Assembly: GCF_055900595.2 (NCBI RefSeq)
Contig: NZ_CM148325.1
DNA: 64,000 bases
Strand: one strand, 5' to 3'
This document shows, in pieces, positions 31,247-31,405 of this stretch. Positions within the stretch are counted from its first letter, which is position 1; each line of letters opens with the position of its first letter. The translations under genes were made by a program, and so were the position numbers. The notes beneath the pieces are model-generated. The model had not been told where the DNA came from, ran no database searches, and saw only the letters and a program-made list of their open reading frames with translations.

Positions 31247-31345
31247 ATGACTACTTCCATGCTCAACGCAAAACTACTACCAACTGCGCCATCCGCCGCA
31301 GTGGTCGTCGTGCGTGTGGTGGTGGTCGTCGGCAATGCGCCGTAG
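31247..31345 (+). CDS. ivbL: ilvB operon leader peptide (32 aa, Val/Leu-rich)
   Basis: ATG ACT ACT TCC ATG CTC AAC GCA AAA CTA CTA CCA ... GTG GTC GTC GTG CGT GTG GTG GTG GTC GTC GGC AAT GCG CCG TAG = MTTSMLNAKLLPTAPSAAVVVVRVVVVVGNAP. Confidence 0.9.
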   Translation: MTTSMLNAKLLPTAPSAAVVVVRVVVVVGNAP

Positions 31346-31371
31346 GGACTGGAACAACACACGATTCCAAA

Positions 31372-31405
31372 ACCCCGCCGGCGCAAACCGGGCGGGGTTT
31401 TTCGT
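31372..31405 (+). terminator. ilvBN attenuator terminator
   Basis: ccccgccggcgcaaaccgggcggggtttttcgttt: GC-rich hairpin plus U-run between leader peptide and ilvB. Confidence 0.85.

Follow-up and report, generated by a model that had tools for sequence, protein, structure and literature searches.

Reading the ivbL leader ahead of ilvBN in 64,000 nt of Escherichia coli DNA as a ribosome-mediated attenuator with competing RNA structures

What does a 32-codon reading frame with nine valine codons do directly ahead of the genes for acetohydroxy-acid synthase I? Positions 31247–31405 of the 64,000-nt stretch of DNA analysed here (the window; NCBI RefSeq assembly GCF_055900595.2, contig NZ_CM148325.1) raise this question, and an earlier note, made from the sequence alone, had answered it with a ribosome-mediated attenuator of ilvBN, composed of a leader peptide with Leu and Val control codons and, 27 nt further on, a GC hairpin followed by a U-run. 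The leader peptide frame (ivbL; MTTSMLNAKLLPTAPSAAVVVVRVVVVVGNAP) runs from an ATG at 31247 to a TAG at 31343–31345 on the plus strand, as do all elements of the leader and its operon described below; that it is translated was taken from annotation and the literature. Its 32 codons include nine for Val and three for Leu but none for Ile. One Leu codon stands at position 6 and the other two form a pair at codons 10–11 (31274–31279), both of them the rare CUA, while codons 19–28 (31301–31330) read GUG GUC GUC GUG CGU GUG GUG GUG GUC GUC, that is, nine Val with one Arg between them (VVVVRVVVVV). A six-frame search of the 64 kb found only five ten-residue segments with at least seven Val, overlapping one another and all within the ivbL frame; mononucleotide shuffles of the same 64 kb gave a mean of 0.1 such segments, so the Val cluster is not due to chance.

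Comparison with E. coli K-12 MG1655 (NC_000913.3) identified the element directly. The two sequences are 100% identical from 31202 to 31460, a range that includes the start of ilvB, and their few substitutions all lie upstream of 31202; the K-12 counterpart is annotated as ivbL (b3672). This K-12 element has been characterised experimentally and was sequenced in 1982, and practically all E. coli genomes carry the annotation. We established both the sequence elements and the K-12 identity here by inspection and alignment. A RefSeq record identical to the window gives the gene order emrD, ysdE, tisB, ivbL (31247–31345), ilvB (31451–33139) and ilvN (33143–33433), in which ivbL is directly upstream of ilvB-ilvN on the same strand, with the leader stop codon ending at 31345, the ilvB ATG at 31451 and ilvN beginning at 33143. 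The first regulated gene, ilvB, encodes the large subunit of acetohydroxy-acid synthase I, and the second, ilvN, the small subunit. All three products scored above the cut-offs of NCBIfam equivalogs: the IvbL peptide matched NF007579 with 78.7 bits (cut-off 60, E = 2.2e-22) over residues 1–32 of the 32-position profile, the ilvB product NF006016 with 1084.6 bits (cut-off 870) and the ilvN product NF006036 with 185.8 bits (cut-off 128).

Globally, a 601-nt query around the element found matches in 5418 of 5426 complete E. coli genomes, and the features underneath were 'ivbL: ilvB operon leader peptide IvbL' and 'ilvB' among the matches listed. The 189-nt leader alone was recovered from the same 5418 genomes in essentially one copy each, at 97.9–100% identity and always under an ivbL annotation among the matches listed, and it was at least 95% identical in every one of the 5418. 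Scanning with Rfam 15 at a permissive threshold gave no plus-strand match over 31200–31450 at E ≤ 1, and there is therefore no independent RNA-family call for the leader. Taken together, it is close to certain that 31247–31405 holds the ivbL leader and the attenuator of ilvBN known from E. coli, a ribosome-mediated transcription attenuator. K-12 identity, RefSeq annotation and the NCBIfam equivalogs all agree with the note on this point, and the leader of 32 codons and the LL and VVVVRVVVVV control codons at codons 10–11 and 19–28 were found as it had described them. The element is an already known, ordinary textbook attenuator. It has no value as a discovery, and it serves as a positive control in which a reading of raw sequence was correct to the base.

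An intrinsic terminator, the attenuator proper, lies between the ivbL stop codon and ilvB at 31373–31407, with folding energies of −18.3 to −21.0 kcal/mol. Its stem pairs CCCCGCCGG (31373–31381) with CCGGGCGGGG (31388–31397), leaving one bulged base, around the loop CGCAAA (31382–31387), and is followed by UUUUUCGUUU (31398–31407), which consists of UUUUU (31398–31402) and then CGUUU to 31407. Folded against shuffles, the terminator segment had a z-score of −2.7. A simple terminator scan did not list this hairpin, though it found the istR terminator upstream, probably because of the one-base bulge in the stem. On the opposite strand, a sub-threshold match of the hairpin to the sRNA family STnc310 (21.4 bits against a gathering threshold of 40, E = 0.39), the only Rfam hit to overlap the leader, was rejected, since a hairpin that resembles a terminator can give such a match by chance.

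Folding of the leader revealed two further structures. The leader as a whole folds with a z-score of −3.7 relative to dinucleotide shuffles, none of 200 of which was as good. The first alternative is an antiterminator at 31336–31385 (−21.1 kcal/mol, segment z-score −3.0), whose core pairs UGCGCCG (31336–31342) with CGGCGCA (31379–31385) and GGG (31345–31347) with CCC (31374–31376), topped by an apical helix of UGGAAC and GAUUCCA (31350–31355 with 31363–31369). With −21.1 and −21.0 kcal/mol, antiterminator and terminator are nearly equal in energy, and since they have 13 bases in common (31373–31385), they cannot coexist. When 31330–31410 was folded whole, the minimum free energy (MFE) structure was the terminator; the same RNA cut at 31387 gave the antiterminator hairpin. 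The mutual exclusion of the two foldings is shown here in silico.

The second is a protector structure of the untranslated leader, spanning 31239–31350 at −46.9 kcal/mol. In it, the 5′ half of the reading frame pairs with the run of Val codons, GGUCCC (31239–31244) pairs with GGGACU (31345–31350), and a small CGGC/GCCG hairpin forms at 31330–31342; together, these helices hold the 5′ arm of the antiterminator. Folding models leave the details of this pairing ambiguous, as the RNAalifold consensus differs from the single-sequence MFE structure and instead proposes a local protector pairing 31304–31317 with 31338–31352. In the MFE structures of a growing untranslated transcript, the protector was kept until the 3′ end reached 31378, the antiterminator appeared at 31386, and protector and terminator were present together at 31398. 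Untranslated nascent RNA ending at 31386 also preferred the antiterminator in the model; termination without translation would therefore depend on the persistence of the protector formed earlier.

How, then, could the position of a ribosome decide between these structures? In the full-length leader at equilibrium, the terminator always forms, whatever the position of the ribosome, so the switch must be kinetic and as such lies beyond what folding can show. Ribosome positions were accordingly compared in nascent transcripts that end before the 3′ arm of the terminator. In this footprint model, 30 nt were masked around each A-site codon and pair probabilities were calculated in nascent RNA ending at 31386. 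The probability of the antiterminator core was 0.94–0.98 with the A site at any of codons 1–26, dropped to 0.44 at Val-27 and was 0 from Val-28 through the stop codon. It follows that a ribosome permits antitermination while it occupies the Leu codons or the stretch from Val-19 to Val-26, and prevents it once the end of the reading frame is reached. Within the model, antiterminator formation depends on the position of the ribosome over the Val codons.

These probabilities fit a scheme in which transcription would start ∼25–30 nt upstream of the leader ATG and a ribosome would translate the 32 codons with RNA polymerase not yet past the leader. With plentiful Val and Leu, and hence charged tRNA-Val and tRNA-Leu, the ribosome would reach the UAG at 31343–31345 and cover the 5′ arm of the antiterminator (31336–31355); the terminator stem (31373–31397) would then form once transcribed, and the transcript would end in the U-run before ilvB. 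With Val or Leu in short supply, the ribosome would stall at CUA CUA or among the Val codons as far as about codon 26. Such a stall would break the protector pairing and free 31336–31355 to pair with 31363–31385, locking the 5′ arm of the terminator away, and with this arm sequestered the polymerase would read through into ilvBN. If the leader is not translated at all, the protector would hold 31330–31350 and the terminator would form. Ribosome–polymerase coupling, polymerase pausing and the in vivo response enter this scheme by extrapolation or from the literature.

Published work on this operon points the same way. The ilvBN operon is attenuated by ivbL, and a GFP reporter placed behind the MG1655 ivbL region was repressed by added Val and Leu (PMC11187965); six other amino acids with codons in ivbL elicited no significant response in an ivbL-based cascade reporter (PMC11187965). 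A list of classical ribosome-mediated attenuators in E. coli and Salmonella includes the operon (PMC1183508), and a passage in PMC6123439, which cites Friden, Newman & Freundlich 1982, places a 32-amino-acid leader rich in branched-chain amino acids (BCAA) ahead of ilvBN. Modelling predicted a slowdown of ribosomes at the Leu codons of ivbL under leucine starvation (PMC3783181), and pausing of RNA polymerase in the ilvB attenuator is attributed to Hauser et al. 1985 in a passage of PMC11347164. Exclusive hairpins, the footprint model and this literature all support the ribosome-mediated attenuation that the earlier note had proposed. Its hairpin and U-run begin exactly 27 nt past the leader (31346–31372 being the spacer), and the folding of 31330–31410, which it had named as a check with the absence of mutually exclusive hairpins as the refutation, yielded a mutually exclusive antiterminator and terminator. 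Two refinements can be made on the basis of the folding models: a third, upstream structure, the protector, is predicted to be part of the switch as well, and Val codons 27–28 appear to be too near the antiterminator for stalls at these codons to be derepressing.

Relatives of the leader were sought in bacterial contigs, one genome per species, with the pattern VVVVRVVVVVG(N/K), in which the first and second base of every codon were fixed and the third was left free. This returned 119 loci, nearly all from named genera of the Enterobacterales, including Escherichia, Salmonella, Citrobacter, Enterobacter, Klebsiella, Raoultella, Kosakonia, Buttiauxella, Serratia and Proteus; 114 of the loci were usable, and 105 distinct leaders were aligned. 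The leader peptides in the 114 loci are mostly 32 amino acids long and have the conserved core LL-TA---AAVVVVRVVVVVGNAP. An IlvB N-terminus (57–99% identity) begins 146–326 nt after the first Val codon in 111 of the 114 usable loci, and in the remaining three the sequence ends too early to show ilvB. Proteus-type leaders (e.g. L014, L045 and L056) depart from the common form: they read MIITTLLQSLRLTAHIAAVVVVRVVVVVGKAP, with the LL pair replaced by L-R-L (CUA CGA CUA) and UAA as the stop codon, and they keep the arms of antiterminator and terminator, with 2 nt inserted past the stop codon and the terminator loop lengthened.

In the alignment, codons 23 (CGU), 24 (GUG), 28 (GUC) and 29 (GGC) were the same in all 105 leaders, and Val, Arg and Gly codons were nearly fixed throughout at their third positions, though the search pattern had left these free; Leu codons 10 and 11 were CUA in 98 and 94 of the 105, respectively. 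The pairs of the terminator were formed in 97.5% of cells, with 8 of 13 pairs invariant, and those of the antiterminator in 91.5%, compared with 34–57% when the partners were slid; conservation of pairing in the protector helices ranged from 52 to 100% per helix. The RNAalifold consensus recovered the terminator and a hairpin within the reading frame. In this hairpin, the pair 31285:31300 covaries (CG in 63 leaders, UA in 34 and AU in 8), with synonymous third positions on both sides, and three pairs of the apical antiterminator helix show compensatory changes (AU 39/UA 12, GC 67/AU 9 and UA 29/CG 9). Whole-structure counts of covarying pairs were not above those of shuffles in the 105 leaders. 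As the arms of the terminator and the antiterminator core are almost invariant, covariation is limited to the one pair in the ORF hairpin and the three apical ones, and we therefore build the structural argument on pairing conservation relative to slid controls, together with these few compensatory pairs, and make no claim of covariation. The conservation itself is shown by the alignment: third positions of the Val codons, the CUA codons and the arms of both hairpins are nearly frozen, as would fit selection acting at once on the encoded peptide, on the choice of codons and on two RNA structures that compete.

Could this conservation reflect something in addition to the switch? The 3′ half of the leader is conserved near-absolutely from genus to genus, including at synonymous sites, which could reflect a role in trans or constraints from polymerase pausing or RNase E beyond a three-hairpin switch. 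We consider it improbable that the terminated leader transcript (∼180 nt) has a second, trans-acting function, for example as an sRNA sponge or in connection with GcvB.

Attenuation by ribosome position would begin with a transcript that starts shortly upstream of the leader. A −35-like TTGTCT (31183–31188) and a −10-like TATAAA (31209–31214) mark the probable ivbL promoter region (31183–31222); judged from these putative hexamers, the transcript probably starts near 31215–31222. This region differs from K-12 by a single base, at 31200. The consensus scan that missed the attenuator hairpin did not call the ivbL promoter either, and on both counts its result is uninformative rather than negative. 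A possible CRP site upstream of ivbL was considered and set aside: there is only a GTGA half-site near 31142–31145, and the second half is poor. Downstream of the promoter follows a CA-rich 5′ UTR, AACACAAAACCAACAA (31224–31239), and then AGG just before the ATG as the ribosome-binding region.

The CA-rich segment bears on a different reading of the locus, in which control would act mainly at the RNA level, through pairing of the sRNA GcvB in the 5′ UTR and cleavage of the ivbL–ilvB spacer by RNase E, and translation of the leader would be secondary. The ivbL transcript has indeed been reported as a GcvB target with a predicted pairing site near the AUG, in the 5′ UTR (PMC11347164), and RNase E sites between ivbL and ilvB as well as a GcvB-dependent stabilisation have been reported (PMC11347164); the composition of 31224–31239 is in keeping with this. 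However, conservation between genera does not extend to the CA-rich UTR (columns 4–20 of the leader alignment), and RNA-level control would leave the nine Val codons, the conserved CUA codons and the mutually exclusive hairpins unexplained. GcvB and RNase E form a layer additive to attenuation, not an alternative to it, and it is very unlikely that they are the main mode of control. Still less can be said for the hairpin at 31373–31407 being a constitutive or bidirectional terminator that insulates ilvB, for instance from istR, with an unrelated Val-rich reading frame and no switch: the dominance of the terminator at equilibrium whatever the ribosome position and the weak opposite-strand STnc310 match would suit it, but istR has a terminator of its own (31091–31118), the segment between stop codon and terminator is conserved base by base and complementary to the 5′ arm of the terminator in 105 leaders, ilvB follows the leader and its hairpin in 111 of 114 loci, and published reporter data show control that depends on Val and Leu (PMC11187965), which together leave this reading next to no credence.

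The surroundings of the attenuator resemble those in K-12 on one side and differ on the other. Just upstream of ivbL, as in K-12, lie the gene for the istR-1/istR-2 antitoxin sRNA (30988–31117, plus strand), a full-length match to Rfam RF01400 at 147.7 bits, and tisB (30594–30683, minus strand), which encodes a type I toxin; a palindrome resembling a LexA box, TACTGTATAAATAAACAGTA, stands at ∼30918–30937 between the two. Further upstream, between emrD/ysdE and tisB, both strands of 30492–30530 gave a sub-threshold match to a naRNA4/REP-like hairpin (26.9 bits against a gathering threshold of 59.5), which is probably a REP element. Identity over the full 601-nt query was at least 99% in only 13 E. 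coli genomes and 90–95% in 1058. As the leader within it stays at or above 95% identity in every one of the 5418, the istR–ivbL intergenic region and the DNA upstream of the promoter (30900–31200) are much more variable within the species than the leader. Downstream, ∼3.3 kb of DNA with a low G+C content separate ilvN from uhpA (33434–36830; 32–40% compared with 50–59% in the flanks), where K-12 MG1655 has a gap of 75 bp. This segment carries two plus-strand ORFs, 33686–34993 (in RefSeq only 34511–34993) and 35245–36732 (in RefSeq 35407–36732), both annotated as hypothetical and neither with a Pfam, NCBIfam or PADLOC match. It is probably a horizontally acquired islet.

How does the element compare with known systems? 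Its closest counterpart is the K-12 ivbL/ilvBN attenuator itself, with the same 32-amino-acid peptide, the same terminator and the same order istR, ivbL, ilvB and ilvN; there is no difference within the element, and the two strains part beyond it, in the few substitutions upstream of 31202 and at the 3.3 kb insertion after ilvN that is absent from K-12. The ilvL/ilvGMEDA attenuator of E. coli likewise has a 32-amino-acid leader rich in branched-chain residues and shares multivalent control and the ribosome-mediated logic, but its peptide is another one (with Ile, Leu and Val codons and 15 BCAA), and both its locus and the genes it regulates differ. The leaders trpL, hisL, leuL, thrL and pheL resemble ivbL in their run of control codons, in the protector, antiterminator and terminator alternatives and in the intrinsic terminator before the first structural gene, and leuL in addition uses the same rare CUA Leu codon; unlike ivbL, they respond to other control amino acids and have Rfam families. 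The ivbL element works like the leader families of Rfam (Leu_leader, His_leader, Thr_leader, Trp_leader and others) but belongs to none of the families in Rfam 15.
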